Shown here piece after piece: positions 10,288-63,491 of a stretch of 64,000 nt of DNA. Position 1 is the stretch's first letter. Every line of letters begins with the position of its first letter. The position numbers and the translations under genes were made by a program. This DNA comes from a virus (lineage: Duplodnaviria > Caudoviricetes): positions 1 to 64,000 of IMG/VR virus record IMGVR_UViG_3300021255_001460; one strand, given 5' to 3'. The notes under the pieces were generated by a model. The model was not told where the DNA came from. It did no database searches and saw only the letters and a program-made list of their open reading frames with translations.

Positions 10288-10855
10288 GACACACGAAGCA
10301 TTGAATCAGTTACTCAAGCAGTACAACCCGATGTTCAAGGCACTTTCCCGCAATTTTGCACGGAAATATTCCTTCTATGCGAACATCGAAGCACAGGATC
10401 TGTATCAGGAATGCGTTCTTGCGGCCTGTGAGTACCTTGAACAGTTCAAAAGTGAAAAAGAAGTGGAATATATTCCGCGAATCGTCTGTGTGAACGCAAT
10501 GTCGAAAGCGATAGCGAACGCTTTGCCGCTCACTTACTGGAAAGACGGTCATATGAAACGCATTATTCCCCTTGCAGAAGAGGCGAACATGCGTTTTTTA
10601 ATGTTTGCGGAATCTGAGTTCCACAGGTGTATGTCAATCGATGAATTTGAGGGCGCGGATACCAACCTGTTCGTTTACGACTTTGTGCAAAACCTGAATC
10701 CAAAAGAAAAGACCATTGTTGGACTGCGGCTCGACCACTGGACACATCAGGAGATCGCAGATGAATTCGGTGTGTCCAAATCCGCAATCACACAGGCTTT
10801 ACACAAGGTCGGCAGAAAATATCTTAACGAAAGGAAGGCGATCCTCGATGGCTAA
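10286..10855 (+). CDS. RNA polymerase sigma-70 family factor (regions 2 and 4)
   Basis: DLYQE region 2-like; THQEIADEFGVSKSAI HTH; TTG start after AAAGGGG. Confidence 0.8.
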   Translation: MTHEALNQLLKQYNPMFKALSRNFARKYSFYANIEAQDLYQECVLAACEYLEQFKSEKEVEYIPRIVCVNAMSKAIANALPLTYWKDGHMKRIIPLAEEANMRFLMFAESEFHRCMSIDEFEGADTNLFVYDFVQNLNPKEKTIVGLRLDHWTHQEIADEFGVSKSAITQALHKVGRKYLNERKAILDG

Positions 10856-11639
10856 CAACGTCACGGTTGTACAGTTTGGTCAAAGTCGCGGCTGTGTTGT
10901 CGCCCACCCTTTGTGGCAATATGACTATGGACAGAAACTGTAGATCAAAGGGCTGAATTAGCCGAGCGATTACGAGGTACATTTTTCCAACTCCGAAGAG
11001 TCTGGCACAGCACGTATTGTGGCTGGTCATGGCAACCTCGTATCTATCCCCGATGAATATTTGCAGTCGGGCAATGACATTTATTGTTGGGTTATGTTCC
11101 ACGAAGACGGGTATGAAAACGATGCCCGTGTGTGGCACATGGCAAAAATTCCGGTCAGTAAGCGCCCCCGCCCCGTTGGAACAAACATTCCCGAGGACGA
11201 ACTTGAGCGCTACTACGACCTGCTGGCACAGATGGAACAGCAGATCGCGGCAATGGAAGCAATGACTGCCTCCTACTCAAATGCAACCGCTGTCGCCAAT
11301 ACGCTGAGTCCTGATGCCGCCGCTACAGTGAACCTTTCCACCAATGCACAGGGCAACAAGCTGTTCACCTTTGGTATTCCGCAAGGAAAGATCCCGGCGA
11401 TTGCCATTGGTACAGTTGAGGCGGTTGCCTACAACGAAGAAGCCGAGGTAAACCGCACAGGAACTGACCTGAATCCGGTGTTTAACTTCAAGCTTCCGCG
11501 AGGCGTTGATGGCACAGGCGCTGTCAGCACAGTCGATGGCAATGCTCCTGACACGAATCACAACGCTGTCTCTGATAAGCTGGGAATGTTTATCAATGAG
11601 GACGGCTATATGTGCCAGCGCATTAAAATCGAATCTTAA
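10848..11639 (+). CDS. BppU-like baseplate upper/fibre protein, 263 aa, two in-frame TAG (10941, 10959)
   Basis: WQYDYGQKL*IKGLN*PSDYEVHFSN continues in frame into ORF 11019..11639; FTFGIPQG motif. Confidence 0.8.
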
Positions 11640-11672
11640 CATTACGACAAAGAAAGTGAGGTGAGAACAACA

Positions 11673-12317
11673 ATGACAATCCGCGACAACAACACCGTAT
11701 ATGTCAACTTCGGCAATGGTGTGGACGCAACAGCCGACGCGATCTGGCAGTACGACACTGGCCTGTATCTCAAGGTTGTGAATGTTCCGAATATGCCTTC
11801 CACTTTTCAGGCACAGTTCAGCAACCAGCTTGAGGGCGGCACAGCAAAGGCAGTGGTCGGCAGTGATTCTGTGGCTCAGATCCCTGATGAGTTTACCCAG
11901 TCCGGTGAACCGATCTATGTTTGGCTGGTTTTCAACATCGATGGCGTGACAGTCCGCACAGAACGTGTCATCAAGATCCCGGTGAAGAAGCGCCCCAAGG
12001 TTGTGGACGAGTAGCCTACACCCGTCCAGCAAAGCACCATTGACTAGCTGATCGGTGAGATGGAGAAGGCTGTTGAAGTAACGGGCGAAGCTATGGATAC
12101 CGCCACTGAGGCGTTGACCCAAGCGAAAGAAGTCATTGTTCGCATCGAATCTTTGGATGTTGCCACTCGCCTTACCAATGCTCGATTGATAGCGTTGACC
12201 GGGGATGCCACTGGAAGCACATCGTTCGACGGTTCGCAGGATGTTGCGATTGATGTGACCATTCCCCGTGCGACAGAGCGAGATATTCAAGAGGTGATAA
12301 ACAATGGCGCTGACTAA
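11673..12317 (+). CDS. BppU-like protein, 214 aa, two in-frame TAG (12012, 12045)
   Basis: WQYDTGLYL..., IPDE, IPVKKRPKVVDE*PTPVQQSTID*LIGEMEK joins two ORF-track pieces in frame; GAGGTGA RBS. Confidence 0.8.
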
Positions 12318-13389: not shown

Positions 13390-13402
13390 GGGACGGTGAT
13401 GG

Positions 13403-13597
13403 TTGATGGCAGTTCAGGACAATCAGAATTTAGTTGATGTTGCCCGACTGGCTGAGTTTTACGGGCATCTTCAACAAGTATTTGGCGCTTCGGTTTTGTA
13501 CGTTGGCGACGATGGTTATGTACACCAGACAATTGTGGTGAACACACCGGATGAAACCAGCGGGAGCGAAAGCGAAGCTGAAGTAGGAGGGAGTTAA
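13403..13597 (+). CDS. small hypothetical protein in structural block
   Basis: 64 aa; YVGDDGYVHQ resembles FINEDGYMCQ at the end of 10848..11639. Confidence 0.6.
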   Translation: MMAVQDNQNLVDVARLAEFYGHLQQVFGASVLYVGDDGYVHQTIVVNTPDETSGSESEAEVGGS

Positions 13598-13600
13598 CAA

Positions 13601-14347
13601 ATGGCTCAGACATATGCCGATTATGTAATGATGACCGACTAGACTGGCAACAGGATAGCACAGGCCATTGAAGATATGTCACCGCCACTGGATGAAGAAG
13701 TTTCTGAAACCAGTACGAATGCGGTGGAAAACAGGGCAATTTACCGCGAACTGAAGGCGCTGTCTGATCGTATTGGTTCAGTCGAATCCCCGGCACAAAC
13801 CGCGATCAAACTGCCTTTTTCTATTGCGACAACTGCATGGACTGGAAGTGGCCCATACACTTATACATTCACTAGTTCCTCAATTAGTACAAACTCGTTG
13901 GTGCTTGAACCAATGATCAGTAGCGGCTTTGATGCACTGCCGCCTTCATGGTCTTGGACACAGACAACGAACGGGGTAACATTTACGGTTTCCACAAAGC
14001 CAAGCGTTACTATTGCTGGCGATATTCCGGTGATTGATAGCGTGAATGGCACTGTTCCAGTTGAGCGTGGTGGCACTGGCGCGACCTCTGCTGTTGATGC
14101 GAGAGTCAACCTTGGCATCCCGGCACATGGTCTTGTGATTGTGAGCGGTGAGAAAGGCACAACCGCCCCGCTTCCAATTTCCAATACCAATATCACGGCG
14201 AATCACAAGTTGCTTAATTATTTTATCGAAAAGCCAGAAAATGAGGCGGCTAGTTGGACATGGACGACTTCAGCTAACACACTGACTATCGAAGGTACAT
14301 TCCTTGGCTCGACCAATATGACGTTCATACTGGGTGTTCCGTATTAA
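13601..14347 (+). CDS. putative tail fibre/baseplate protein, 248 aa, in-frame TAG at codon 14 (13640)
   Basis: AGGAGG RBS; MAQTYADYVMMTD*TGNRIAQAIEDM in frame with ORF 13676; GTVPVERGGTGATSAVDARVNLG fibre motif. Confidence 0.8.
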
Positions 14348-14364
14348 TGAAAGGGCGATGAATT

Positions 14365-14895
14365 ATGATTGAAAAGTTTTATACCACATAGGAGATTCAG
14401 CATCTTCCGAATGGCAACATACAGTGCCTTTACGATCACTATAGTGACATCCGTTATGCGCTGGCTAAGTATCATACAGTTTGTGCGGCGGCTGTGCTGA
14501 GTGAACTTGATTATCATGCGGCTTATCTGCTGGACGATACTGGTGTTTATCGTGATGAAACTGGTCGTATGTACCGTGAAATCTATGACCGCCGCGAAGA
14601 TCCGATGGCTGATCTGTATGTGACCATTGAGAACCAGATGCGGCCTGATGGAAGTAAGGGTCTGCTCTATGAATCCTTCGACAATCTTCCTCAAGGTCAG
14701 CAGAAGTACCACTACATTTGTGCGGCGGCTTCTGTGAGTGGTATTCCTTACCATGCCGCCTTCCTGATCCGCGAAGATGGAGTGTTTGTTGATCAGGCTA
14801 TTTGGGATCGTAGAGTTGATCCTGATATTCAGCCTGAACCAGAACCCGAAGAAGAAACTCCTGCCGAACAGGTTGATGAAGGCGGTGAGGCGTAA
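14365..14895 (+). CDS. hypothetical late protein, 176 aa, in-frame TAG at codon 9 (14389)
   Basis: MIEKFYTT*EIQHLPNG... in frame with ORF 14494; internal duplication (YHTVCAAAVLS / YHYICAAASVS). Confidence 0.75.
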
Positions 14896-15251: not shown

Positions 15252-15264
15252 GTAACTTGCTGAT

Positions 15265-15549: not shown

Positions 15550-15551
15550 CG
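15539..15551 (-). repeat. shufflon recombination site B
   Basis: TTGCTGTTTAACG on +, the inverted copy of site A. Confidence 0.8.
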
Positions 15552-15572
15552 AAATACCAAGGAGAAGAAAAC

Positions 15573-16027: not shown

Positions 16028-16034
16028 CAGATGA

Positions 16035-16340: not shown

Positions 16341-16361
16341 AATTATGGCGCTTCCTGAAAC

Positions 16362-16458
16362 GATTGGTGACGGAATAGGTAGACGCGCCGGGTGTCGCAA
16401 GCGAGGCGATGGTATTGCGATAGTCCATCATGTAAGGTGCAAATCCTTACCCAGTTCA
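16362..16458 (+). ncRNA. tRNA-like RNA 1 (D and T arms, no canonical anticodon arm)
   Basis: GATTGG/CCAGTT acceptor, TGACGGAATAGGTAGACGC D-arm, GTAAGG-TGCAAAT-CCTTAC T-arm. Confidence 0.65.
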
Positions 16459-16500
16459 TTTCAGCAGTTTTCTCAAGAAACTGCGAAAATAATCAAAGAT

Positions 16501-18444: not shown

Positions 18445-19254
18445 ATGTGCATGTTGCCAGAAGGAATTAAGTTTTCGTTCTCATCCCTGTCTGCCTACGA
18501 TCATTGCCCCATGAGTTTCAAGCTGTCCAAAATCGATCACCTTCATGACGACGGCAACTTCTTTTCCCAGTACGGTTCTTTCGGACACAAGCTGTTCGAG
18601 CAGTATGAGAAGGGCGAGATCCCTTTGATTGCGCTGGGGCAAGAGTACGCTGATCGGTTTGAGGCTGAGGTTACCGCAGACCCGCCACCATTTCCCCGTG
18701 GCCTGTGGCAAAAATACTATGATGCTGGGCAGGAGTTCTTCGACAACTTCAATGGGTTCGACGAACACTACGAAATCCTTGAGATTGAGCAAAAGTTTGA
18801 AATCAATATCGGCGGCTATCCTTTTGTGGGCATTGCCGATTTAATAGTCCGCAACACACTGACTGGCGGTATCGAAGTCATCGATCACAAGTCCAAGTCA
18901 AAGAACAGCATGAAGAAAGAGATTGATGTGTACCGCAAACAGCTTTACACATATGCCATGTATGTTCATGAGAAGTACGGCGAGTGGCCTACCATGTTGC
19001 GGTTTAACATGTACAAGGAAAACTACTGGATTGACGAGCCGTTTGATATAAAGATGGTCAAGGAAACTGAAGACTGGGTAGTTGCCACGATAGACCGCAT
19101 CAAGGCCGACACAGAATGGTTCATCCACGAAGATGAATATTTCTGTTGTAATATCTGCGGCTTCTTTATGCAATGCCCAGCCCACAACATCATCATCGAA
19201 CGTCGCCACGAGCGCATGTTGGCGAAGGAACAGGCACAGAGGGGTGACGAGTAG
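18445..19254 (+). CDS. PD-(D/E)XK nuclease, Cas4/RecB-like
   Basis: SFSSLSAYDHCP, IEQKF, GIADLI, IDHKS, QLYTY, C-terminal CCxxCxxxxxC. Confidence 0.85.
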   Translation: MCMLPEGIKFSFSSLSAYDHCPMSFKLSKIDHLHDDGNFFSQYGSFGHKLFEQYEKGEIPLIALGQEYADRFEAEVTADPPPFPRGLWQKYYDAGQEFFDNFNGFDEHYEILEIEQKFEINIGGYPFVGIADLIVRNTLTGGIEVIDHKSKSKNSMKKEIDVYRKQLYTYAMYVHEKYGEWPTMLRFNMYKENYWIDEPFDIKMVKETEDWVVATIDRIKADTEWFIHEDEYFCCNICGFFMQCPAHNIIIERRHERMLAKEQAQRGDE

Positions 19255-19255
19255 T

Positions 19256-22200
19256 ATGAGCATGGTGGTCTATCATCTACACAGTGACAACTCAATGTTC
19301 GACTGTGCCACCGACTTTGCCGACTATATCGCGTTAGCCAAAGAGCAAGGCATGACCGCGATTGGCTCAAGCGAACACGGCATCCATCGTGACTGGGTTC
19401 GCAAGAAGCTACTGTGCGAAGAGGCTGGGCTGAAGTTTCTGAATGGTGTAGAGATCTACCTTACTGAGTCGCTGGAAGAAAAGGTGCGCGACAACTATCA
19501 CACCATATTGATCGCCAAGAACCATGATGGTCTGGTGGAACTCAATCGTGCGGTCTACAACTCCACAAAGCCCGACCACATGTTCTACAACAACCGCCTG
19601 ACTTTTGATGAGTTTCTGGCGCTGTCCGACAATATCATTAAGATCAGCGCCTGTATAGCTTCGCCACTCTGCCGTTTGCCGCATGATCATCCTTACTACA
19701 ACAGGTTGGTCGAGGCGTATGACTTCCTTGAGATTCAGCATCACAATATTCCGCTCCAGAAAGAATATAACTCTTGGCTGTGGCAACTGTCCTGCGAGTA
19801 TGGCAAGCCACTGATTGCTGGCACTGACACACATGCCGCCACCAAGTACAAGGCCGATTGCCGCCAGATTATGCTTGACTACAAGAAGCAAAGATATGAC
19901 GGCGAGGATGAGATGGATCTGACTTGGATTACTGAGCAGGATCTTGTGGCGGCTTATGCACGGCAAGGTGTTTTGCCACAAGCAGTTTATCTGGAAGCAA
20001 TCGCAAACACGAACAAGCTGGCTGACATGGTGGAAGATGAGCCGCTGGATAGGTCGATCAAGTATCCTATTCTGTACGGTTCTCGAGAAAAGGATGAAGA
20101 GGTTTTTGAAAACCGCATCCAAGAAATGTTTGCGGCAAAGTTGCGTGACGGTGTGATTCCGATGAGCCAGAAGGAAGCATATGAGAAAGCAATTGATGAA
20201 GAGTTGAGCGTATTCAAGAAGCTACATATGTGCGGCTTTATGCTTTCCCAGAGCGAACTGGTCAAATGGTGTCATGATAATGATATTCCGACAGGGCCAT
20301 CCCGTGGTTCTGTTGGCGGCTCGAGGATTGCATACATTACCGACATCATCGATATGAATCCCGAGACACTCAATACAATCTTCTCACGCTTCTGTAATGA
20401 ATCTCGTGTAGAGGTGGGTGGACATATCGCTCACCTAATAAAAATCTGTTGAACTGCTGGAACACCCTGAGAGCCTTGATACCAAAACAGAACGATGAAA
20501 TATGCGTAGATGGCAATGGTTTGAAAAGTTCAAGGATTGGGCAATCAGCAACCAAGCCCCGAACAGGGGAAGGCTCAACGACCATTCCGTAAGGAAGTAC
20601 ACCGTAAGCGCGGTGGAAGTGGCAGACGCTATATAAGCGAAGATATGGTCTGTTCTCTACAGAAAGTGTAGAGAGGTTAATCCTTGCACGGAGTAGCGAT
20701 CCGAGCAAAACATTCAAAGATATTGATACCGATATTATTACCGAAGACCGCCCGAAGATATTTGAATACATCGCCAGCCGTTTTGGTAGCGAGTTCACAG
20801 CACGGGTTGGTTCATATGGTACGTACTCAGATAAGAATATCATCATCGATGTTGGTGCGGCACTTGCAAACAACTGGTTGCGCGATCACGGTGAAGATGA
20901 CCGCGAACTCAGTCCTTATCCGCTGAAACGTGTTGACCGCATCAAGAAAGAATACGACTCAGATCCTGATGCGACTGCAAAGAAATATCCCGACATCTTC
21001 TACTACTACGAAGGCTTGAAGAATGTCCGCAAGCAACAAGGAGTCCACCCGGCTGGTATGGTGATTTCGCCAGTTAATCTGATCGACGAATACGGCGTGA
21101 TGTACAAAGATGGCGAGAACGTTCTGATTCACGACATGGATGCGGTTCATGATGCTGGTTTGGTCAAGTACGATTTTCTTGGACTGAAGACCATTGCCGT
21201 TATTCGTGACACATGTAAGCTTGCTGGCATCCCCTATCCACGCTATCACACAATGGACTGGGATGACCAGAAGGTATGGAAGGATATCTGCGATTTTCCA
21301 CAGGCTATCTTCCAGATGGAATCTCAGTTTGCGGCAGACGCGATCAAAACATTCCAAGCCAAGAGCATTGCTGACATGACTCTGGTGACCGCATGTATTC
21401 GGCCTTCTGGTGAATCATACCGTGATAAGGTCTTTGCACATATTGCAAATAAGAATCCGACCAAAGAAATGGATAACCTTTTTGCGAACAGTCTTGGTTA
21501 TCTGGTTTATCAGGAACAGATCATTGAAGCCCTCATCAAATTGTGCGGTTTCAGTGGAAGTGAAGCCGACACGGTTCGCCGCGATATTGCAAAGAAAAAA
21601 GAAGACAAAGTTGCCGCCGACGTTATTAAGATCCGTGAAGGATATTGCGCTCGTTCTGATAAGCCGCGAGAAGTTGCTGAGAAAGAGTGCGAGGAAATGC
21701 TTCAGGTTATCAATGATGCAAGTGGGTATAGCTTTGGATACAATCATGCCGCTGGATATAGTTTGATCGGCTACATCTGTGGCTGGCTTCGGTACTACTA
21801 CCCCACTGAATTTGTTGCGGCTTGGATGAACAACGCTGATGGTAAGGATGATCTCGCCACAGGTACTGCTTTGATGCGGCGCTACAATGTCCGAGTTATG
21901 CCGCCAAAGTTTGGTGTCAGTAAGAGCGGATTTGGTTGCGACCACGAAAAGCATGAGTGCGCTATTGGCCTGATCTCTATCGATGGCTTCGGCTCAACAC
22001 AGGGCGATGCGCTTTACAAGCTGGCACATGAGCATGAGTACAAATCATTTGTGGATCTGCTCGACGACATATTTGAAACCCGCGCACTGAATGCCACACA
22101 GGTTCAGCAGTTGATCGACATCGACTTCTTTTCAATGTTTGGCAATATTAACGAACTGACAAGCATCTACGAGTTCTACAACATGCTGGGTAACCGCAAA

Positions 22201-22701
22201 ACATTGAACAAGGAGAAGTACGCAAATACACCGATTCAGTGCATTATCCAGCAAAACGCCAACGGCTTAACTGCAAAGGGTGCTGAAGCCAAGGTATGGA
22301 CGATAACCAACCGCCACCAACTCCTGCTCGACATTGAAGAGTATGTTCGCCGCCAGAAGCTGGATGATCTGTCAACCATAAGCAAGGCAATAGTTTACGC
22401 AAGGATTATGAACGGCGAGTGTCCGGTCACAGGCCGCGAAGAAGACCGCCCCAAGCTTTATGTCAAATCGGTGTATCCGGTCAAGCGCAAGAAGGACAAC
22501 AAACAGTTTGGTGTGGCGATCACAACCAGATCCTTGGGCAGTGGTATTGAGTCGCGCTTCACGATCTTTATGAATGTGTACAACCAAGATCCGGTCGAGG
22601 CTGGCGACTTTGTTTTTGTGCGGCGCTATTCGGCTGACACAAAGGGCGACACAACTTACTTTACTTTGTGGGAGTACTATAAGTTATATCCCGGAGATTA
22701 A
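19256..22701 (+). CDS. dnaE: DNA polymerase III alpha subunit, split by a group I intron (exons 19256-20419 and 20719-22701, 1048 aa)
   Basis: PHP HLHSD, GPSRGSVGGS, FSRFCNESRVEVG|DIDTD, HPAG, KYDFLG, YQEQ, YSFGYNHA. Confidence 0.92.
20420..20718 (+). ncRNA. group I intron without ORF (299 nt) in dnaE
   Basis: P1 AGGTGGGT/GCTCACCT with U.G at 20419; P 20452-66, Q AATCAGCA 20543, R TCAACGACC 20575, S GAAGATATGGTCT 20639; P9 hairpin; removal restores VEVGDIDTD. Confidence 0.88.
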
Positions 22702-27885: not shown

Positions 27886-28491
27886 ATGCCCGTCACATCA
27901 TTCTCAGAACACATCAACGTAAATGATCTGGGTAAGGCTGGCACATTAACCTTGTAGTGCCTCGACCTGTCTATGCGTCGTCCGGGTTTCGCCGTAATCG
28001 AATACGACAAAGAAACCCGCGCCACAAGGGTTGTCGAATCCTCAGTGGTTGACAACAAATCCACCAAGGCTTTAAGAACGCACGGACAGATGTTGCTTGC
28101 TACTGCCGCCGAACTCAGGCGCTACTTCGAGAAATACAAAGACCGCAAACTGATCCTTGCCAAAGAGGATGCGGTTATGTCTTACCGCAACATTAACACC
28201 AGTGTAACCATCAGCAAAGTACACGGTGTTGCTGACATGATTGCCGCCGAGTATGGCTACTTCGATTTTCAAGGTATTGGCACAACCGCAATCAAAAAGA
28301 TGTTAACTGGTCGCGGCGATGCACAGAAGGACGAAGTGGAGCGCGGCACACGGGTCTTCATCGGACAGGAGTACGAATACCAATTCGATGATGAGTCCGA
28401 CGCTGTGGCTGTTGGGCTGGCGTGGCTTATTCAGGGCGGCTTGCTCAAGATGCCGAAGAACTGGAAGCTTCCAGAAAAAGAAAATGGTTGA
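27886..28491 (+). CDS. ruvC: RuvC-like Holliday junction resolvase, 201 aa, in-frame TAG at codon 24 (27955)
   Basis: TLTL*CLDLSMRRPGFAV; AKED; G.G.AQKDEV; DESDAVAV; GAGGTGA RBS before ATG 27886. Confidence 0.85.
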
Positions 28492-32308: not shown

Positions 32309-32496
32309 CAGTGAAGTGGAATGACGCTACAGGTTGAACTTCAAGACTTGCGGAAAATGCTCAAAGAAAAATGCGAAGAGATTATCAGCGATAAAAAACT
32401 CGTATGCGAGTTTTATTGGAGAATCTGCGAAATCGAAGAAGATGATAGGTTCACGGTTGTAGATGATTTGCATGATGGGCAGTGAAGTGGAATGAC
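32309..32496 (+). repeat. 17-bp gene-junction direct repeat CAGTGAAGTGGAATGAC (32309, 32480)
   Basis: Each copy holds the stop, RBS-like sequence and next ATG. Confidence 0.7.
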
Positions 32497-46079: not shown

Positions 46080-46511
46080 TTACATATCAATAGGGGCTTC
46101 GTGTAGCTTTTCCACAAAGTCCGTTGGTACATGATTATGTCGTCCGCACTTCACGTACTGTTCGTACATGCGCTCGAGCGAACTTCTCGTATCCAGTGAT
46201 ATTGGGTTCTTCTTAACACCATAGTGGACGTATGCCCAAGTCAATTTTTCGTTCTGTAGCGTAGCTGTCTGCTCGTCGGTCTGTGCCAGCCGCCCATCAA
46301 TCTCATCAAGCCGCTGAACAATCTTGTCAATCTTCTCATCAATCGATTCAATGCGTCGCTGTGCTTCAAGCTTGCGCTCTGCTCTTTTTAACACCCAGTC
46401 ATGAACGGCCTCAAACGTTTTAACAGCGCCAACGACTACGCCAATCTAGGCAATTACTCCTACGAAAGCACCCCACCCAGAAGTGAGCCACTTAACTGCT
46501 TCCTCTCCCAT
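46080..46511 (-). CDS. holin-like membrane protein, 143 aa, in-frame TAG at codon 22 (46446-48)
   Basis: MGEEAVKWLTSGWGAFVGVIA*IGVVVGAVK (TM helix) continues into ORF 46080..46394; LERMYEQYVKCG.N. Confidence 0.75.
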
Positions 46512-46533
46512 TGGTGTCACCCTACCTTATCTT

Positions 46534-53352: not shown

Positions 53353-54423
53353 TTACCGCATCAGGCCATCAAAGGTGATGGTAAGTTTGGACAAGCTGGC
53401 ATTTCCAGATCCGCTCTGCCCGGTAATGTTCTGCGTAGACACAATGAGTTCATTCATCTTGCCGACCAGACAAACATCGCCCTTAGTTGCTGGCATGTTC
53501 GCGTTGATTGTACAAGAGCCGCCATCATCAGCTACCGCCAGAATCTTTCGCCAAGCGCCCTGTACGTAAATGTAACTGCCTACATCTTCTGGGAAAAACT
53601 TCGCGGTTGTTTTCAGCAAAGCAGATCCTTGAGCGCAGATCACATAAATGTCGCGCCTGTACGGGAAGCAAGGCTCAAGATTGATGTACCCTTTGTCGTG
53701 GTATGCAAACGCATAGTTCGAGCCAACCGTGATCTTCTGGTACTTACTGTCGATGACCAGATCCTGACCAGAGGGCAACCCGACAATTTCGCACGTATCA
53801 TTGTTGGCGCTGTTTACGATCACAAGTTTACGGCCTGTCGGAATTGTTCCGCGCACAGTAATGGTCGCCGGGGTTGGCTCAGTGCCGGGATTCCACACAA
53901 GCTTTGTACCCATTGCAGTTGACACGGCTGGGATCATGGAGTGGCGAAGTATGCCGCAAAAAGATTCGATGCGGTACTCGTCTACCTCGTTGTCAGTGAG
54001 TTCCAACGTGTTCATTGTGCCGAATGGATAATACGCCGTCAGGTTGAGCGTGATTGTGCCGCTATACACTGTGAGCAGATTACGGTTCGTGTGTTCCTGA
54101 TAGCGGTCGCCAGTGGGCAGTTTGCTAGGCCGCACCATGTAGGTGATCCAAGGGCGCTCGTCAAAAACCAGTTCGCCCAGTACGCCAACGTGAACCCACT
54201 GGTAAATCTTGTCAAGCTGTGCATCGGTCAGGTCTTCAAAGTAGCAGTACAAGCTGAAGTCCTTTTGCTGAACGGTCGCCCCATTATAATAAGCGCCGGG
54301 AAAGTTTGTTACTGTTGCTGTGTTCACTTTGTACGGTGTGCCAGCATCCAGCAATGTCTTGGAATTGGGTATATAGGTCTATCCCATCTCGGTACAGTGG
54401 ATGCCGCGAAAAGTAAACCCCAT
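53353..54423 (-). CDS. distal tail protein (Dit-like), 356 aa, in-frame TAG at codon 15 (54379-81)
   Basis: MGFTFRGIHCTEMG*TYIP; GELVFDERP..Y; L.AYYPF; N.GT.P; follows the tape measure. Confidence 0.78.
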
Positions 54424-54444
54424 CACATCCGCTTTCAATGGTCA

Positions 54445-54779: not shown

Positions 54780-57700
54780 TCAGTTGAATCTGATGCCGCC
54801 AACAGACATTCCCTTCGACATATCTGCCACAATGGAATCCTTGACACGGGTGGCAACTTCTTCAAAGTCCGCATCATCATTCAGGGTGTCAACCTGTACG
54901 ATAATGTCGCCCACATTAATTGTGTTCGCCGTAGTGTTTGTGCCAGCCAGACCGCCAAAGGAAGGAAGCTGGAAGTGCATCATGCCGATGGTGTCGAGCA
55001 TATCGTTCAGCGCCTTCAAGCTGTTGGAGCGGTCGGCGTTGATCAGCAGTCGAGTCAGTTCCGCATCGTTGATACTTTCCGGGTTCGTCTTTGTGCCGTC
55101 GAGCCAAGCATAACCTGTGCGGTCAATCAAGCCGCCAGATGCATAAGCACGATGTGTATTACCCATTGCACGAGCCGCCACAGAAGCAACAGCCGACACA
55201 ATGTTTGTGCTTGTGCGTTCAACCGCTTGATTTACCATATTACTAAGCCACCCGCCACCGGAACTCCCGGACGAATTTGCGTTGTTGGAATTTGTAAACC
55301 GCGAGAATGCTGTACTAACTGTTTCTGGATTCGCTTGGTTAACTGTCCGGCTAATACTACTCAGGAAGCCACCGCTACCAGAACTACCAGACACAGGCGT
55401 TGTGTTAACACGATCCTGCGTCTTTCTCGGAATATTATAAGCACGAACATAGTCAGCAGAAACAACACCGCCACCGGGCAGATTCTTGTTACGCCAATTC
55501 ACACATTCGGTCTGACTTGCTGGGCCATAATACCAATACTTGTCATCCACAACATAGAATTGCCCATTGCTATCAGCAAGCATAAACAGGTCGCTACCCT
55601 GTCCAAGATGGTTAATTGTTCCAGAACGGATAGGCACTTGAGAAGTTGTCGGTTGTCCATTGCCTCCAGATCCTCCTCTGCCTCCACCGCCGCCAGATCC
55701 ACCAGTCGCAGATGCCGCCGCCGCACTAGCAGAAGCCGCCGCAGACTGTACCTGACTCAATGCCTGAAGCGCGGTATTGGTGAATTCCATCAACTGCTCT
55801 GTTGGGAACATATCGATGTATGCTCTTCTCAGATTCTCAATAGCATCCTGCCAGCCCTGTGTCATCAGTTTCTGTGCATAGCTATTGGCTTCAAGGAACT
55901 CCTGACTGTTCTCCTGTAGGAACTGTATGATGTAGTCGCCGCCCTTGGAGATGATCTCTTCAACCTCATCCCAGTTGGTCTTAATGATGCCAAACATTTT
56001 TTCAAGAGTTTCTGTCCAACTATCAGAATACTCTTTCTGCATGTTGGCGGTCGCCTTAATATACTCTTCGTCGTTCGCTTTAAGCCACTCGAGGATTTCG
56101 GTCATAGACATCTTCATGATATTGTTGACTTCTGCCTCAAAGTTCCTCGGATCTTTCAGCAGTTCCTCATAGTAGCTTTCGATGTAATCCGCATAGTCTT
56201 CAAGAGATTCAACCTTTTCTGTGATAGCTTCCTGCTGGGCTTCAACTTCCTGTTCAGCCGCATCCCAAGCGATTTCTTCCTGAAGTTCCGCAATCTCTTT
56301 GGCAATCTTCTGGGCATCTTTGGCGCGGGTCGGGTCAGCAGAAATACGAGCGTACTGTGCCTGTAAGTTGGACAGTCGCATCGCTTTGTCTTCCTGTTCA
56401 GCAAGCTGTTTGCGCTTGTTCAACTGGTTGGTCAGTTCGGAAGACTCTTTGTTCAGCGCCTTGATACGGGTGTTGGTGGTTTCAAGGATCTCGTCGCGCT
56501 CTTTCTCATAACGCTTCATGACCACTTCGAGGATCTTTTCTTCCACCTCACGCGATGCTTCAAACGCTTCTTTCTCGCGTGCTTTCCGGTCTTCGATTGC
56601 CGCATTGATGGTGTCGCGCAGGTCGCTTTCCATCTGCCAGATCTGTTTGCGGTATTCCTTGATAGCCTTTTCGTTGGCCTTGATCTGGGCGGTGTTCTGA
56701 AGAATGGCTTTGTTATAGTCGGCGTACTTCTTTTCAAGTTCGGTCAGGCGCGATGCAACGGAGTCATAAACTTCGCTGTTCGCATCTGTGCTGGCGAGTT
56801 CGGCTTTGGTTTCGTCAATCTTGGATCTCAGCTGATCCATATTGCTCTGGTAAACCTCAGACTGTTTTGCCAGCCACTTGTTTTCTTCGGTCAGAGTATT
56901 GATTACGCCAGTGAGATAACCTTCGTCAGCCCAAGATTTTTCAATAATGCCAAGTCGGTCGAGCAGATCTTTAATGGCATCGATCTCATTGTCGATACTA
57001 TCAAGAAAGAGTTTTTGTCTCCTACTTGCGGCTTCTTCGGCTTTCTGTGCTTCTTCAGCGGCAATTTCTTCGGCAGTCTTTTTAGTACCACCACCGCCTC
57101 CACCGCCACCTCTCTTGCCAGTGGTTGTCGCTGTTTCGTTATTATTTTTCTTACTACTTGTTGCCGATGCGGCTTTTGCGGCAAGACCTGTTAACCTACT
57201 AGTCGCGCTACCACCACCGCCGCCATTCACAGTCGCAGTCACCAGTCCATTAGCATCAACACCAATCCTCACGCCGTTCAAAGACATAGCCTTGTTCAAC
57301 AGATTGGCAAGCGCAACCTCTGCTTCGGTGGCTGTGGATTTCATTCTGATAAAACCGTTTGTAAACGATGACGGGTCAAATCTTGTGCCAGCCATGTTCA
57401 CCAAAGCCTGTGTTAAGACTTGGATGGATGCTCGGACTTGTTCGGTTTGCCCGTTCAGAATCTGAAGCGCAGTGTCAAGGTTATTTTTGACAGAATCGGC
57501 AGTCATACCAGTTACGGATGCCAGAAGCGAATATGCACTGGTCATTTCCTTGGTATCAGCCCCGGCATTCGCAGTGACATAATCCAAAGCTTCATATGCT
57601 CGTCTTAACTTGTCGGACTGGTCAATCATCTTTGCCATCGCTTCGGTAAATGTACCCTGATCTTCACCAGCCGCACTAAAAGCTGTCGCATACTGTTTGA

Positions 57701-60700
57701 TAATCTGTCCACTTGCACCAAGCTTATTTAAATCCATCTGAGCAATCTGCTTGGCGAATCTTGACAAATCCTCTTCGCCATCTTGTAGTGCCTTACGCAG
57801 ATCTTCGATAAAATCGTCGGTAATAACACCAGCACTCTTCAAAGATTTCTGCGTTGCTTCATCAAGTTCATCATAAGCCTTAATCAACCCACGGGCTTCT
57901 TCTGGCGACTTCATGGCTTCAATGATCTGCTGATAAGAATTAATCGCCACACGACCAGAGTTTACCCACTGCTGGTTGACGGTATTGAGCGCAGTACCCA
58001 TACGCTTGGTTGCGTCCTCAACACCCTGACTCATCTGGGTAGATACGGTACTGAAGTCGTAATTGTTAATCTTCTCCTGAAGCTGATCAAGCCACACAAC
58101 CAGCGGATGATCCTCGCCAAGATATTCACGCATCATATCAATCGACTCGAGCCATGCGTTCAGCTTTTCGATAAGCATCGTATAAATGCCATCGAGATTA
58201 CCTTCAACATCTTCGGTATCGATTTTAAATTCAGATGCAAGAAGTTTTTGCGCTTCCTGTAATTCCTTGGCAGAAGCAATACCATCGCCCTGTGCTTCTG
58301 AAATCAGTTTCCATGCATCGTACAATCTTCCAAGTTTTGCCGCCCCAGCTTCCGCATCCATTTGTAGCGGCACAAAACTTCCAATCTCATCGTTGCGGTG
58401 TTCAAAGAGTGCATATAATTCATCGACAAATTCGCCAGCATCATTTAGTGCCTCGGCCTCTGCATTATGAACATCAGCTATGGCGGTCGAGAAATCTGTC
58501 GCGCCCTGTACCCAAAGCACCTGAAGCTTACGGATAAAATCTTCGGTCAATCCGGTCGCGCTCAAGAAGGTTTTCTGCTGTTCTTTTGTGAAGTTATCAT
58601 AAACTTCAAGCACAGCCGCCACACCTTCACGAGAACCAAGACTTTCAGCAAATTCTCCGAAGAAGTCCACATTTGCCTTACCTGTGGTATTGTTCGCGGT
58701 TGCCGTCATCAGAGTGGAAAGGTTATTCAGACCGCCGTAATTCTGCGACTGAGTTTTAACCGCATCACCAAATGATATGCCAGCCAGTTCCTCGAATTGG
58801 TCGATCAGTACTTGTAGATCTCCAAGTGTTGCGCTATCTGGGGCAATCGAGTTAACTATTTCTGAGAATTCGGTTAGCTTTTCTTTTGCTCCATCAACCT
58901 TCAGACCAATCAAGCCAAAGACTTCATCAAGATGCTGTTCCACATATTCCTTATCCAGCCCAAGAGCATCGGCAATTGTTTTGTACCTTGCCTCGTCCGC
59001 TTCCTTATTTGCAAGATGATCTGGCGCGGTGAGTTCCTGATATGCCTTTGCCGCCTCAATGATCTTATTGTAGTCCTGACGGATTTTTTCAAATGCCGCC
59101 GTATACTCTACTTCCTTCTTCGGGTCGAGACTCAGCGTAAAGGCTTCGGCAAGAGACTTATTATCAGAACCCATCTTACCATACAGTTCGAGGCGGTACT
59201 CATTCATCTGCTTGATGAACTCGTCAAAGTTTACTTCGCCATGTTTGAAAGAAACTTCCAGCCCCTTGATCCAGTCATCCGTAATACCAGTCATGGACTT
59301 GAATGTCTTGAGTGTTTCTTCATCCATTGAGCCAAAAGCACGAATCAAAGCCTCCGCGCCAGAACGATCCTGTAATGCTTCGTTCATGATACGCCATGCA
59401 TCTTCGACATCTTCGGTATCAACCGCAAACTTATCAGTGAAGACATTCAGGTAGCTAAGAATCTCGCTTGTCTGATCCTGAAGTTCTGCGTTGTGTTTTT
59501 CTGCGATAGTGTAGAACTCTGCATTATCCAGCAGATCATTCATGTCGTCGATAAACTCAGCCACAAGACTGTTTTGATCGTAATCTTCAGAGGCAGTAAA
59601 TGCATCGTTCAGTGCTTCGACAGAATCAACAGTCTGATTATACTTCGCAACCAAGACATCCAGCGCTGGTTCAAGGTTGTTCTTGAGATTATCCGCATCA
59701 AGTCCGGTAACAGTAGATAGTGTCTTATAAGCTTCTTCAAGTTCGCTACCAGACAAAGCATCTTCCTTGATATTCTTGTATGCTTCCCATGCCTTAACCA
59801 GTGTGGCAAAATCAGCTTTCTGACCTTCCATCAATGGATACAATTCAATGATATTCTGGTTGCCGCCAATAGTATCACGATTATCAAAGATGTCGCTATA
59901 GCCTTTGAGGATGTCGCCACTCTTGGCACGAGCCGCCAGAGATTTTGCAGGACTTGCTTCCTCGTCCGGGTTCGCACCGTCAATCGCGCCTTCGCCATCC
60001 TGCACTGCTTTATCGACAATATCGGCAACCTTCGCCACAGCAATCCCGTAGATCTCGCTATAGTCCTGTGCGATCCGATTGTATTCATCGACATCTGCCT
60101 GAGTTGCTCCTTCGGCAGTGGCTTTCTTGTAAGCTTCGTCAACCATCTGCCAACGGTCACGCTGGAGATATCCTGCATCAGCATATGCGTTCTGGGCATT
60201 CTGGCTGATCTGCGTAACAGCATCAATTGCCTGTCGCGCCCTTGCTTTCAGGCCGCTGTCAAGTGTGTAATCAAATCCATCAATTACGCTCTGATACTGC
60301 TGTTTGTATCCTTCTGCCAACCACTGTGGAACGTTATCCAGATCAAGGAAGTTGCTGAATATATCACGCACTTGGCCTTTCAGATCTTCCTTCTGCCGCT
60401 CCAGATTAGCAAGGTCAGATACGGTCTGCATGTATTCTTCTTGAGCATAAGAGATATTGCTGTTATTCCAATAGTCCTGATTGTTGATGGCTTCATGATG
60501 TGCATTATCTTTAATCCACTGATCAAATGTGCCGCCATAATTGAAAGCCATATTGCCGCTTGTCCAAAGATCATACTCCTTAAAGATCTTGGAGAAAGCG
60601 TCAATATCAGTACCTCTCCTGAACCGTTCAAGAATATCCTCGCCGTATGCTTCCTGTAGTGCCGCCGCATAGTTATCGACGAACTGATTCATGTCGGTAT

Positions 60701-63491
60701 AATAACGTCCATGAGCAGTGGGAATTTGATCTTCCTGCCGCCTGATCTTACTGGCGGTTGCGTCGATGGTATTCAAGGTTTCATAAGCGGATCGTTTCGA
60801 TGCCTCTTTTTGTAGCCGCAGATTTTCAGCAAGTGATTCGTTCAGCTTGTCTACCATATCTTTCTGGTAGCTATACTTATCACCAATATTCTGCACACCG
60901 CTGGTAATACCGGGAATTAATCCTTCAAGAGCCGCATAAATTTCATTCAGCTTTTGCTGATCTTCTGCGGTCTTGTCTGTTTTCTTGGAAAGTTCTTCAT
61001 ACTCATCGCGAAGTGCGACAATAGCGTCATTTTTCTGTGCAAATTTTTCCTGTTCTTCTCTTGCGTCACTAATACTATTTTTAATGTCAGACAAAGACTG
61101 ATCAATATCTTCGCTACGGTCGGCAATTTCCGTTTCAGCACCGCCAACCATTCCGATCAAAGAAGAGAACAGCGCAATCATCGCACCAACACCAGCCGCA
61201 ATCATTGCATACGGATGGCCTGTGGCGAAGTTAATAATTGTGTCGAACAAGTTAAATGATTTGTGAGCATTCAGGAAAGTTACTAAAGATCCAATCAGAC
61301 CAATGAGAACCGGGAGCGCGATATTCAGTCCACCAACAGCGCTGGTCACATCGAGGAAATCGGTGGCAAGATCAAGCAATCCCTTAGTGATTTCTGGAAT
61401 GTGGAAGGCACTATATAGTTTTTCCAACGAAGCCTGAAGTCTACCTTGTGCCGCCGTAACTGATTCCTGCCAGACCGCGAAAGACTCAGTTGTGGTATTG
61501 GCACTATCCATTGCGATTTGATATAGTGTCAGTGCGCGAGAAACTCCGTCTACACTTTCAGCCGTCTTTGACAAATCTTCCATCAAGCCGATAAAGAAGT
61601 TCTGTCCACGAGTACCAGCCATAACTGTAGCCAGATAGGATCGGGTCTTGCTATCCATGTCTGCCCACTTTTCACCGATCTCGTTAAACACTTGGCCCAT
61701 CTTACGCCACTTGCCATTCGCATCCATCAGAGCAATACCCTGTGTGGCAAGTGCTTTTGTAACATCATTCAGTTTGGTTTCGTCATCACTATTGAAACCA
61801 GTCTGCTTGATCTGACGCATACGTGCCAGAATTGTGTTCAGCGCAGTACCGATAGATTCAGGGGCAAGACGAGTACGCTCGGACAATGTGGCAATCCAAG
61901 AAGACAATTGCTCAAACGATACACCAGCATCAGATGCAACACTCGCAACCTTCTGCATTGCGGTTGCCATTTCAGCACCACTCGTTGCGGCGGCGTTTCC
62001 CATTGCGATAAACGTATCTGTGACATGTTCGATATTAAGTCCAACTTGTCCTGTGGCATCATCAACCCAACCGGAATAACCGTTCAGAGTTGCAGTCAAA
62101 AGTTCTGAAGCTTCGTCAAAATTCATCTTGGTAACCTTTGCGAACTCGGTTACCCATTTAAGTCTGTCGTCAACTTCATCATCACTCAAGCCCTGACGAT
62201 AGAATGTAATTGCCGCTTCAGCAATCTCTTTGCTACTAACATTCATCTCACGAGCCATATCGCGATACTTAACAGCCAGTTCGTCTGCGGCTTGTTGGTT
62301 CATACCAGTAACCACACGAATTTCGTTCATCTGGTCATAGTATTCGTTAGCATATTGGGTTGCTTCCTGCCACATTTTTCGCAGAAGATTTTGGGCGGCA
62401 TGAACACCAATCTGCACCAATGATGTAAGAATCTTGTCAGCCAGCGTGGTGGTGACCGTTAGTTCAGAATTCGCGTCGGCAAACTTACCCCTGAGATCTG
62501 TGGCATAATCGCCTGACTTGCGAATATAGTCAGCTTCCAGTTGAGTATTATCAGCGCCAGCATCAACAAGCGCATTAATCTCGGCTTCTACACCCCTCAA
62601 CTGTTGTGCATAATGATAAGACTGTTCAATAGCCGCAGAACGTTTTTCTTCACTCGAAGATTCGGAATGTCCAACAGCATCTGCGGATGACATTTTCTTA
62701 AAGTATTCAAGACGCTGTTTGTATAGTTCGTTAAGCCGCCTCTGATTGGCGATCTCATTTTGTGTAGCAGTTGTGTCGGCTTGCTTAGCCCTGACCAAAG
62801 CGGCTTCCTGCTCATATGTTCTGTTCAGCTGTTCAAGTGCATTGCGCTGTGTTTCAGTCAGAGTGATGTTCCGGGATCTCTGCTCATACTCCGCACGTAA
62901 AGCATCTGCCTGTGCATGTAAGGCCACAATAGAATTTGCATCTTTTGATGGATCAAGTTTTGCGGCCTGTAATTCATATGAGTTGATTTGCTTCTGGAGA
63001 CTCAACAACTGCTGATATTGTTCGACTTGCCTTTTGGAGGCTTCAGTTGCGGCCTTTTGATCGGCAACCTGTGCTTTGATTTGCTCAGTACGAGTCTGTC
63101 CTTTTGAAACAAGTTCCGCAAGTTGAAGCTTTTCTTTGTCATTGAACTTGATGCTATCTACAATCAGATTAACAATAGCACCTAACTTCTCCGCTCTTTT
63201 TTGTAGCGCTTGCAGTTCGCTGGCATTTGTCTCAGCACTTAACCGCGCATTCTGAGCAGATATGTTATTAAGTTCGGACAAAACCTTCTTGAGTTCATTA
63301 TAAGCGATAGTGGCTTCCTTGGCAGACTTTGCCGCGCCAGACTGGTTACCCATATCAGCGATTGCACCATCAACGCCACTGATCTACCCTTTGATTTTGT
63401 CCATCTGTTCTGCGGTGAACGATGTTGCACTAACTAGCGCATCATGTAATGGTTTCCAGTTAATGACTAGTTCGCCAACATTAACAGCCAT
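54780..63491 (-). CDS. tape measure protein, 2903 aa, single in-frame TAG at codon 36 (63384-86)
   Basis: GGGGAGG RBS; MAVNVGELVIN...KIKG*ISGVDGAIADM joins the 2857-aa ORF; TP901-type core; C-terminal GGLIDRTG.AWLDGT. Confidence 0.9.

Follow-up and report, generated by a model that had tools for sequence, protein, structure and literature searches.

In-Frame TAG Codons and the Genes That Carry Them

The DNA analysed here (the window) comprises bases 1–64,000 of a 90,106-bp IMG/VR phage record that is 78% complete. Ten TAG triplets interrupt eight genes of the window at the positions originally reported (Table 1), those on the minus strand appearing as CTA. Reading through them yields eight intact ORFs, every one of which terminates with TAA or TGA, and the ORF map confirms that the interruptions are TAG alone, with zero internal TAA or TGA in these genes. 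Six more in-frame TAGs counted as sense codons lie beyond the window, one each in the genes for TerL, the portal, two virion proteins, a GIY-YIG endonuclease and an exonuclease, which brings the 90-kb record to 16. Further TAGs in read-through frames (10256, 16380, 19079/19091, 51007 and 77336) lie 5′ of the real starts and were left out of the count. The base 3′ of the TAG is A at 8 of the 16 sites, and there is no clear motif.

The TAG-bearing set comprises fibres, Dit, tape measure, tail tube, portal, TerL, membrane protein and RuvC, and internal TAGs are absent from primase-helicase, DNA polymerase, NrdD and integrase. This is the distribution of a recoded phage, with TAG favoured in late or lytic genes and avoided in the integrase and early genes. 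The original prediction assigned the TAGs to late genes; the set is not solely late structural, as RuvC, a homing endonuclease and an exonuclease have one TAG each. A megablast search with 5 kb gave no match among the INPHARED phages, and Clostridia MAGs contain relatives of the phage, including contigs of 268 and 300 kb. We take it to be a temperate phage of the rumen or gut with a host probably among the Clostridia.

Table 1. Genes with internal or terminal TAG in the window, and the tRNA located beyond it.
Feature	Coordinates	Strand	Length	TAG
Integrase	7728..8726	+		8724–8726 (terminal)
Fibre-like gene 1	10848..11639	+	263 aa	10941–10943 (codon 32), 10959–10961 (codon 38)
Fibre-like gene 2	11661..12317	+	218 aa	12012–12014 (codon 118), 12045–12047 (codon 129)
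Tail-fibre-like gene	13601..14347	+	248 aa	13640–13642 (codon 14)
Two-repeat protein	14365..14895	+	176 aa	14389–14391 (codon 9)
Early exonuclease	18445..19254	+		19252–19254 (terminal)
RuvC-like resolvase	27886..28491	+	201 aa	27955–27957 (codon 24)
Small membrane protein, possible holin	46080..46520	-		46446–46448 (codon 25)
Distal tail protein Dit	53353..54438	-	361 aa	54379–54381 (codon 20)
Tape measure protein	54780..63491	-	2903 aa	63384–63386 (codon 36)
tRNA(CUA)	78172–78269	-	98 nt

TAG as a Sense Codon

The location of the TAGs inside coding sequence is backed by homology, paralogy, an internal repeat or conservation at nine of the ten window sites, and by the ribosome binding site (RBS) alone at 13640; at the former nine, we rejected the possibility that the TAG is an in-frame stop 5′ of the true start. 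Alignments to family profiles or relatives run through the TAG in both fibre-like genes, RuvC, Dit and the membrane protein and, beyond the window, in the portal, TerL and tail tube. The ATGs upstream of the TAGs have Shine-Dalgarno sequences, as had been noted; downstream starts are far off and have none.

The two fibre-like genes are paralogues with the same domain order, and their alignments to phrog_16164 cross both TAGs in each (residues 18–135 of gene 1 and 22–143 of gene 2). Homologues of gene 1 in relatives G003 and G010 cover both TAG sites, the RBS aaggaagg lies 5′ of its ATG, and the following start comes only at codon 58. Between ATG 10848 and TAG 10941, all six differences listed for other ruminant-gut strains fall at third codon positions. 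In gene 2, which has the only mid-gene TAGs, homology covers residues 1–160 of the frame, and tail-fibre motif matches lie downstream of both TAGs at residues 164–203. A contig from an RNA library spans 11844–12147 in this gene, for which DNA carry-over is possible. The hexamer gene caller favoured an antisense ORF of 337 codons (11277–12290, minus strand) over both fibre genes; we rejected it because PHROG matches, homologues and third-position strain differences all back the plus strand.

In the two-repeat protein the internal repeat aligns YTT-TAG-EIQ with YVTIENQ (score 146). This alignment crosses the TAG and therefore places it inside the coding sequence, opposite Ile; the next possible start is codon 44. 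The RuvC-like resolvase matches Pfam RuvC (3e-10) and phrog_159 (1e-17), and its TAG is located in the first beta-strand, where it is kept in relative G001 and other relatives have F, F and L; the catalytic Asp27 falls between the TAG and the first downstream start, M30. The TAG of the membrane protein sits in the middle of a hydrophobic helix (VGVIA-TAG-IGVVVG) and is likewise kept in G001, with Ile at this column in relatives that align weakly; the adjoining gene (46534–47391) matches an amidase/minor tail family. The alignment of Dit to phrog_33 (8e-20, residues 6–256) crosses the TAG, which G001 also keeps. The tape measure has the RBS aggggaggga before ATG 63491 and none before the next ATG (codon 47); its TAG is kept in the 97% identical relative L009, and the 35 upstream codons show only 2 changes, versus many more downstream, while more distant relatives show no homology across the TAG. 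The weakest case is TAG 13640. The gene that contains it has PHROG tail-fibre matches at residues 129–180, no homologue covers its N-terminus, and it is the strong RBS taggaggga before ATG 13601, with none before the next start at codon 26, that points to a sense reading.

At each of the eight sites covered by independent assemblies of 94–97% nucleotide identity, the TAG is retained (27955, 46448, 54381 and 63386 in the window; 66858, 68961, 74492 and 76401 outside it). Sheep and bovine gut contigs from four runs cover TAG regions; the differences listed for them, to which 1274 further rows belong, include no change of a TAG base, and we do not take this as proof for every TAG.

An alternative explanation is that the TAGs are genuine stops, in genes that start downstream, are split or are decaying as pseudogenes, and that the tRNA described below is irrelevant or dead. 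Most TAGs are indeed near 5′ ends, where an in-frame stop before the start is expected by chance, homology does not support TAG 13640, and the tRNA has no close relatives. However, this explanation is very improbable, as homology, paralogy or an internal repeat spans the TAG at most sites, the genes are interrupted by TAG only and never by TAA or TGA, and the TAG is conserved at eight of eight sites in diverged assemblies and recurs at the same columns in distant relatives. Starting downstream would moreover remove the catalytic Asp of RuvC, 58 codons of TerL and 108 codons of the portal. These comparisons place the TAGs inside coding sequence and show them to be conserved in close relatives.

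TAG is also used as a terminal stop in the integrase and the early exonuclease, in agreement with the original prediction, and the ORF map contains no gene ending in TAG in the minus-strand late block. The gene that follows the integrase runs from 8745 in the same frame, and a read-through fusion of the integrase with a phrog_1366 protein (7728–9770) was rejected: phrog_1 and phrog_216 (integrase) cover residues 17–320, and the phrog_1366 match begins at residue 342 of the read-through frame with profile position 2, which indicates two genes with a TAG stop between them. In the early exonuclease (phrog_69 exonuclease, 4e-28), homology in nine relatives stops before the TAG (residues 1–258 of 271), and reading through it would extend the protein by 11 codons.

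A Suppressor tRNA outside the Window

A phage suppressor tRNA had been predicted to lie outside the window, and a tRNA with anticodon CUA is indeed found on the same record (L006:15172–15269), just upstream of the packaging genes. It matches Rfam RF00005 with 44.8 bits (cut-off 29), has the anticodon loop UU-CUA-AA, and folds with acceptor, anticodon, 7-bp variable and T arms (z = -3.7). ARAGORN detected no tRNA in the window or the whole record and, at a relaxed threshold, returned a nonsense 4-base anticodon at the true locus, because the variable arm is about 28 nt long (a 7-bp stem and an 8-nt loop). IMG/VR and JGI metagenomes, scanned for exact patterns of this tRNA, yielded nothing or three unrelated tRNAs; as no relative with the exact 98-nt tRNA was found, the long variable arm has no covariation support. 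An Rfam scan of 63–90 kb (E <= 1) returned just the tRNA and a match resembling a group I intron, with no ribozyme beside the tRNA. Searches of the 78%-complete record for RF-1 and PCRF domains had no match, and neither an RF2 nor a synthetase was found in it.

The tRNA has A73, a G1.U72 pair, A14/A15, GG (G18G19) in the D-loop, U48 and a normal T-loop. By Rfam alignment and sequence, it combines the features of a leucine-type tRNA, i.e., a long variable arm, A73, A14/A15 with U48, and G18G19. Ser and Tyr tRNAs have G15:C48, A15 with U48 being a Leu feature. Bacterial tRNA-Gln is class I with G73 and U1-A72, and the glutamine-type combination of a class I body, G73 and a weak 1–72 pair is not found here. 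The acceptor, A73 and the T arm are common to this tRNA and the suppressor of relative G002; across the family, suppressor D-arms look like those of Firmicute tRNA-Leu, and class II versions of 84 nt occur in two relatives. The tRNA has a Leu-like class II body. The variable arm of tRNA-Leu is usually about half as long as the ~28 nt seen here, and charging could therefore differ.

The Amino Acid Inserted at TAG

To compare Leu with Gln, 14 genomes were aligned all against all and the residues at TAG columns were scored as log2-odds. In each genome carrying tRNA(CUA), Leu ranks first at the TAG columns, and in ten related ~100-kb phages with a tRNA(CUA) the columns are overwhelmingly Leu. The scores favour Leu over Gln by 70–170 bits in four dense users, G002 (+45.4 vs -24.7, with Leu the majority residue at 32 of 55 sites), G013 (+82.1 vs -44.9), G021 (+45.6 vs -24.9) and G023 (+109.6 vs -60.7), with smaller margins elsewhere; family-wide, Leu is clearly above Ile, Val, Met, Tyr and Ser. 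Three genomes in which no tRNA(CUA) was detected (G010, G012 and G014) have 1–4 in-frame TAGs. The aligned columns show that the relatives read TAG as Leu.

The 13 scorable sites of this genome weakly favour Leu (L 0.0 vs Q -4.3), with Val and Ile scoring equally. The TAG column of Dit has L7 V5 C1 in 13 relatives and that of a virion protein V12 I11 L4 M2 F2 in 31 sequences, neither with Gln, and five more relatives have TAG at the latter. Other columns are L in the exonuclease, D32 E18 N10 in the portal, K/S, L/N, E/T and E/K in the fibres, and H/Y in the endonuclease. The sole TAG/sense difference from L009 is a CAG (Gln) here and a TAG there, in a hypervariable column; among Gln codons, only CAG leads to TAG by a transition. 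Judged from its relatives and the body of its tRNA, TAG in this genome is most likely read as Leu.

The original prediction had instead invoked code 15, in which a phage tRNA(CUA) charged with glutamine makes TAG a Gln codon. TAG to Gln is the only such change reported in the literature for phages whose code differs from that of the host, several columns here are polar (e.g., portal D/E/N and fibre E/K), the CAG/TAG polymorphism with L009 fits, and the gap between the scores in this genome is merely ~4 bits. Nevertheless, we consider code 15 unlikely, as relatives with a homologous tRNA favour Leu by the large margins given above and the best-aligned columns of this genome are aliphatic, the conserved ones in Dit and the virion protein being devoid of Gln. 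The TAG of the membrane protein lies in the core of its helix and that of RuvC in the first beta-strand, and the tRNA, class II with A73, is not of the Gln type.

It is likewise improbable that TAG encodes another residue (Tyr, Ser or Ile/Val/Met) or is ambiguous, with the long variable arm altering the choice of synthetase. The arm is roughly double the length usual for Leu, Ser and bacterial Tyr tRNAs are class II as well, Val and Ile equal Leu on this genome's sites, and the endonuclease column is Y/H; however, A73 speaks against Ser, A15 with U48 is unlike the G15:C48 of Ser and Tyr tRNAs, Leu is clearly ahead of all these residues family-wide, and the acceptor and T arm match those of the suppressor in G002, where TAG aligns with Leu.

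UAG encodes pyrrolysine in some anaerobic Firmicutes, and the source of suppression might be the host and not the phage tRNA, by way of either pyrrolysine or an amber suppressor of the host, in line with the failure to find a synthetase or release factor in the phage record. This is extremely unlikely as the phage has a canonical-looking tRNA(CUA) whose normal T-loop and D-loop GG are unlike tRNA-Pyl, relatives without tRNA(CUA) have no or few (1–4) in-frame TAGs, except for the partial G023 record, and the aligned residues are Leu and not Lys-like.

Position of the TAGs and a Possible Translational Checkpoint

The TAGs are biased towards the 5′ ends of genes: 12 of the 16 fall in the first fifth of the gene (permutation p = 5e-6) and 14 within the first 68 codons (binomial 1e-10). 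The tape measure, with 2903 codons, has its sole TAG at codon 36. This bias is real. A promoter-like match upstream of tRNA(CUA) is weak and no better than chance.

We propose that the sparse TAG sense codons, 16 in the record, are decoded by the phage's own amber-suppressor tRNA. As leucyl-tRNA synthetase (LeuRS) ignores the anticodon, the LeuRS of the Clostridia host would charge tRNA(CUA), and TAG would most likely be read as Leu. Without the tRNA, host RF1 would terminate the TAG-bearing genes after 3 to 129 codons; with it, full-length fibres, RuvC, membrane/lysis protein, Dit, tape measure, tail tube, portal and TerL would be made. Since nearly all TAGs lie within the first 70 codons, the arrangement could provide a low-cost translational checkpoint for virion, packaging and lysis functions, with the integrase and early exonuclease keeping TAG as a stop. 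Such a checkpoint would serve a temperate phage. Taken as a whole, this explanation, with sparse sense TAGs, a dedicated Leu-type tRNA(CUA) and a 5′-biased checkpoint, is in our judgement probably correct. We infer the translational gate and the timing of tRNA expression indirectly, from the 5′ bias and the place of the tRNA gene upstream of the packaging genes, and a putative temporal switch of the code during infection, as originally suggested, is plausible. Alternatively, the 5′ bias could have no regulatory role and reflect that incomplete suppression costs less early in a gene. The extreme 5′ clustering of so few TAGs makes the idea of late-gene timing directly testable.

A stricter version is an "amber lock", in which each key gene (packaging, tail, lysis and resolvase) has about one TAG = Leu codon among its first ~70, and a temperate phage of rumen Clostridia combines these codons with one dedicated Leu-type tRNA(CUA). 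We put this forward tentatively, with somewhat more doubt than belief. If it were true, virion assembly, DNA resolution and lysis would hang on the expression of one small RNA, the TAG columns shared with distant relatives (portal codon 55 and tail-tube codon 18) would be conserved regulatory sites and not neutral recoding, and the phage would use a stop-to-leucine code that the literature searched does not describe for viruses.

Comparison with Relatives and Known Systems

The relatives compared (IMG/VR records G002, G003, G004/G005, G006/G007/G020, G008, G013, G021 and G023) are siphophages of ~90–120 kb from ruminant or animal-gut Clostridia. They have portal, TerL, Dit and tail genes in common with this phage at ~40–55% identity, and a tRNA(CUA) near the packaging genes with TAG aligning to Leu; some also have TAG at portal codon 55 and tail-tube codon 18. 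Most differ in having suppressors of 76–77 nt, with a truncated variable arm, or 84 nt, whereas the tRNA here has 98 nt, and in having 21–126 scored TAG sites further along the genes, whereas here there are 16 TAGs. In the dense relatives G002, G013 and G023, TAG occurs along the whole gene, in contrast to the 5′ concentration seen here.

Gut phages with code 15 and suppressor tRNAs include crAss-like, Lak, Garnet/Topaz and phAss-1 phages (10.1101/2021.08.26.457843; Peters et al. PMC9523058; PMC10607447), and the preprint by Borges et al. observed recoding of TAG to Gln and of TGA to Trp only (10.1101/2021.08.26.457843). In the literature that we searched, phage recoding of TAG is to Gln only. 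The present phage resembles these phages in its tRNA(CUA), its in-frame TAGs in structural, packaging and lysis genes, its integrase without internal TAG, its standard-code host and its animal-gut habitat, as well as in the hypothesis that translation of late genes awaits the suppressor. It differs in that the amino acid is most likely Leu and not Gln, that use of TAG is very sparse, with 16 codons in 90 kb, and concentrated in the first ~70 codons, and that the class II tRNA has an over-long variable arm; neither RF2 nor a synthetase was found. The tools prodigal-gv, MgCod and Pharokka-gv translate TAG as Gln, which would put the wrong residue at dozens of conserved Leu positions in this family. 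Such recoding pipelines would not flag sparse users of TAG at all, and would call TerL, portal, Dit, RuvC and tape measure truncated.

UAG is read as Leu in NCBI codes 16 and 22 (chlorophycean and Scenedesmus mitochondria), in chytrid mitochondria and in some phyllopharyngean ciliates (PMC6551751, PMC6131824, PMC11687900). The codon has the same meaning there, likewise via a tRNA-Leu with CUA, which is possible because LeuRS does not read the anticodon; those reassignments are genome-wide and belong to organelles or eukaryotic nuclei, whereas here the virus is proposed to impose the reading temporarily on a host that retains TAG as a stop. For the same reason a Leu tRNA would be an easy suppressor scaffold that needs no phage synthetase, which may give viruses more ways of rewriting the code of hosts that use the standard one. 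The classical leucine-inserting amber suppressor is E. coli supP/leuX, a tRNA-Leu changed from CAA to CUA that competes with RF1. The phage tRNA is predicted to work in the same manner, with a tRNA-Leu body and anticodon CUA inserting Leu at UAG; however, supP/leuX suppressors are laboratory mutants of a host gene, whereas the phage tRNA gene is natural and occurs together with TAGs conserved in essential genes of the same phage. The 98-nt tRNA, whose variable arm is over-long, is a natural candidate for a suppressor scaffold.

In-frame TAG codons

All ten TAG codons predicted to be in frame within the window are present, and with TAG read as a sense codon the eight ORFs that contain them are continuous and end in TAA or TGA. 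Because some in-frame stop lies upstream of every ORF, and about one third of such stops are expected to be TAG, an ATG followed by a TAG and a long ORF can occur by chance. This null explanation, in which each TAG is a chance stop upstream of the true start, was tested site by site. The family and repeat alignments and the RuvC catalytic residue (see the table of features) argue against it, as does the presence in all cases of an upstream ATG or GTG with a Shine-Dalgarno sequence at the correct spacing; the next possible starts have no Shine-Dalgarno sequence and are often distant (codon 44, 58, 59 or 109). The two fibre-like genes are paralogues with identical domain order, and the differences listed for other strains in the stretch from the ATG at 10848 to the first TAG are without exception at third codon positions. 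For the tape measure gene, comparison with a relative that keeps the TAG shows many more changes after the TAG than before it (308-nt alignment, ~90% identity). Another sample provides two independent IMG/VR assemblies (94-97% identity), in which TAG is kept at 8 of the 8 covered sites. For the TAG at 13640, a weakly supported site, the RBS is the sole evidence. Six further in-frame TAGs occur in the remainder of the record, in the genes for TerL, the portal, two virion proteins, the GIY-YIG homing endonuclease and an exonuclease.

Opposite the fibre-like genes lies an antisense ORF of 337 codons with no stop of any kind and a good hexamer-model score. This candidate was ruled out, as homology and strain variation all favour the plus strand.

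Features of the phage record, with TAG codons and the residues aligned with them (window and record positions coincide)
Feature	Position	TAG codon	Observation	Residues in TAG column
Fibre-like genes 1 and 2		32, 38; 118, 129	phrog_16164 alignment crosses all four TAGs	K/S, L/N, E/T, E/K
Dit		20	phrog_33 alignment begins at residue 6	L7 V5 C1
RuvC		24	catalytic Asp is codon 27; earliest downstream start is codon 30	F F L
Internal-repeat protein	14365-14895	9	two internal repeats; repeat alignment (score 146) crosses TAG	I
Membrane helix				I
Tape measure		36	2 changes in preceding 35 codons relative to a relative that keeps the TAG	
TerL		7	next start only at codon 59; family matches from residue 21	
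Portal		55	24 full-length homologues aligned on either side	D/E/N
Two virion proteins, including the tail-tube-like one (codon 18)		18 and 68		
Tail-tube-like virion gene	66187-66909		split by the 978-bp insertion	V12 I11 L4 M2 F2
GIY-YIG homing endonuclease		43	TAG within catalytic domain	H/Y
Exonuclease		3		L
tRNA(CUA)	78172-78269 (-) (L006:15172-15269)		Rfam, 44.8 bits (cut-off 29)	
978-bp insertion	65231-66208 (L006:2231-3208)		just past window end; absent from 97%-identical relative L009	
Antisense ORF	11277-12290 (-)		rejected	
Integrase and phrog_1366 gene	7728-9770		integrase stop TAG at 8724; phrog_1366 gene begins 6 codons on, same frame, no other stop between	
Small early-region ORF	32120-32617 (-)		TAG at 32327-32329	
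DNA polymerase (phrog_405)	19133-22701		two ORFs, 19133-20452 and 20878-22701; gap about 20407-20877	
Contig junctions	16366-16452		just upstream of primase-helicase gene	

A suppressor tRNA

The suppressor tRNA that was expected outside the window is encoded further along the record. ARAGORN found no tRNA in the window or the whole record; Rfam identified one, with the anticodon loop UU-CUA-AA. Its length of 98 nt is due to a variable arm of ~28 nt (7-bp stem, 8-nt loop). It has discriminator A73, a first pair G1.U72, A14, A15 and GG in the D-loop, and U48 before the T stem. The tRNA gene is on the same strand as the late block and is flanked by an exonuclease gene on one side and by the HNH/TerL packaging genes on the other. 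Exact-pattern scans of IMG/VR and JGI metagenomes for covariation found no sequence relatives of this tRNA, and the record (78% complete) encodes no release-factor domain.

The amino acid inserted at TAG

Thirteen related records of 64-119 kb were obtained via the portal family, and ten of these carry a tRNA(CUA). Most of these tRNAs are 76-77 nt long, and two are class II molecules of 84 nt. A73 and a D-arm like that of Firmicute tRNA-Leu are common to all, and the tRNA of relative G002 shares its acceptor and T arm with that of the phage studied here. Every frame bounded by TAA or TGA was translated with X for TAG, and the genomes were compared all against all. Only the best-supported frame per locus was retained, and the residues aligned with X were scored.

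Residues aligned with in-frame TAGs in four related phage genomes
Genome	Sites	Majority Leu	Leu (log2-odds)	Gln (log2-odds)	Sites in log2-odds sums
G002	55	32	+45.4	-24.7	64
G013	71	48	+82.1	-44.9	74
G021	62	25	+45.6	-24.9	64
G023	120	65	+109.6	-60.7	126

The log2-odds were summed over slightly more sites than are counted in the second column because of a looser local-alignment cut-off. Antisense-frame artefacts would yield Q, E or K and not L, since CTN is NAG on the opposite strand. Five TAGs of the portal gene of G002 (residues 87, 90, 161, 167 and 311) lie opposite Leu in all three genomes compared, this phage, G004 and G006. Three relatives in which no tRNA(CUA) was detected (G010, G012, G014) have 1-4 in-frame TAGs. 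Relatives G008 (IMGVR_UViG_3300045988_157779) and G004/G005 encode the tRNA and have 3 and about 11 scored in-frame TAG sites, respectively; other phages of this family thus also use TAG sparsely.

The TAG sites of this phage are less decisive because they are located in less conserved N-termini. Their columns are aliphatic or hydrophobic in Dit, the tail-tube-like protein, RuvC, the exonuclease, the membrane helix and the internal repeat; the portal, fibre and endonuclease columns are not of this type. The summed scores for these sites are 0.0 for L, -0.2 for V and -4.3 for Q. Taken with the result for the family, the body of the tRNA and the conserved aliphatic columns, they suggest that TAG probably encodes Leu here too. 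The original prediction had referred to code 15, in which TAG is Gln; the negative Gln scores in this phage and its relatives make this reading improbable. The sole TAG/sense difference from a close relative, CAG here and TAG in L009, would be silent under the Gln reading; it lies in a hypervariable column, and any new TAG most commonly arises through a change from CAG. That some other residue is inserted, as the endonuclease column or the score for V might be taken to indicate, appears just as unlikely as Gln.

Phage stop-codon recoding via suppressor tRNAs is established, with enrichment in late and lysis genes and avoidance in integrases (10.1101/2021.08.26.457843; PMC9523058; PMC10607447), and one study states explicitly that TAG to Gln and TGA to Trp were the only changes seen (10.1101/2021.08.26.457843). 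Our literature search on recoded phages likewise found only these two, and a search on UAG to Leu found mitochondria and ciliates only (PMC6551751, PMC6131824, PMC11687900). The phage described here follows the same logic but differs in its tRNA scaffold and, probably, in the amino acid, and its use of TAG is unusually sparse and start-proximal.

Distribution of TAG and a possible translational gate

TAG use in this genome is sparse and 5'-biased: 12 of the 16 TAGs lie within the first fifth of the gene (permutation p = 5e-6), 14 are inside the first 68 codons (binomial 1e-10), and the tape measure gene has a single TAG in 2903 codons. The skew in the relatives is milder, with 28-48% of TAGs in the first fifth versus 20% expected. 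TAG occurs at the identical column in distant relatives for portal codon 55 (G002 and contig L014) and for tail-tube codon 18 (five contigs). The capsid, scaffold-region, baseplate and replication genes contain no TAG. The prediction that early genes retain TAG as a stop agrees with the integrase and an early exonuclease, both of which end in TAG.

We infer that the start-proximal TAGs may form a translational gate. Before the tRNA builds up, translation of TAG-containing genes would be ended by RF1 within a few dozen codons, at low cost and without harm; with Leu-charged tRNA(CUA) available, the packaging, tail, resolvase and lysis proteins could be made in full length. In a temperate phage, leaky late transcripts in the lysogen would also be silenced. 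Alternatively, the 5' bias could have arisen without a gate, through selection to keep truncated products short where suppression is incomplete.

While the suppressor is active, part of the integrase would be made as a fusion with the phrog_1366 protein. The TAG of the small early-region ORF is aligned with a TAG in G002, and weak similarity extends 5 residues past it; this TAG may either be read as sense or be a conserved stop.

Source of the phage and other features

The record is a linear IMG/VR virus of 90,106 bp (CheckV, 78% complete; the window is bases 1-64000). The phage is of the siphovirus type. Its tape measure is 2903 aa long, and the phage encodes an integrase and, as replication genes of its own, a primase-helicase, a split DNA polymerase and NrdD. 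Identical or nearly identical DNA occurs in sheep, bovine and other animal-gut metagenomes (13 studies). Portal relatives were found in Clostridia MAGs (Eubacteriales, Christensenellales-like, Acutalibacteraceae), including on contigs of 268 and 300 kb, which indicates that the relatives are prophages of Clostridia.

Within the 978-bp insertion are a group I intron-like Rfam match of 33 bits, for which the cut-off is 50, and the gene of a GIY-YIG homing endonuclease, which has an in-frame TAG of its own. As the insertion interrupts the tail-tube-like gene, expression of this virion gene seems to require splicing as well as read-through of its TAG. In the DNA polymerase, contigs of two other gut samples connect 20407/20412 to 20718/20722, without about 310 nt, which points to a small mobile intron that this phage has and other strains lack. 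Many contigs, from all four runs compared, end or join just upstream of the primase-helicase gene, with unrelated loose ends on both sides, suggesting either a short sequence common to many genomes or a recombination hot spot.
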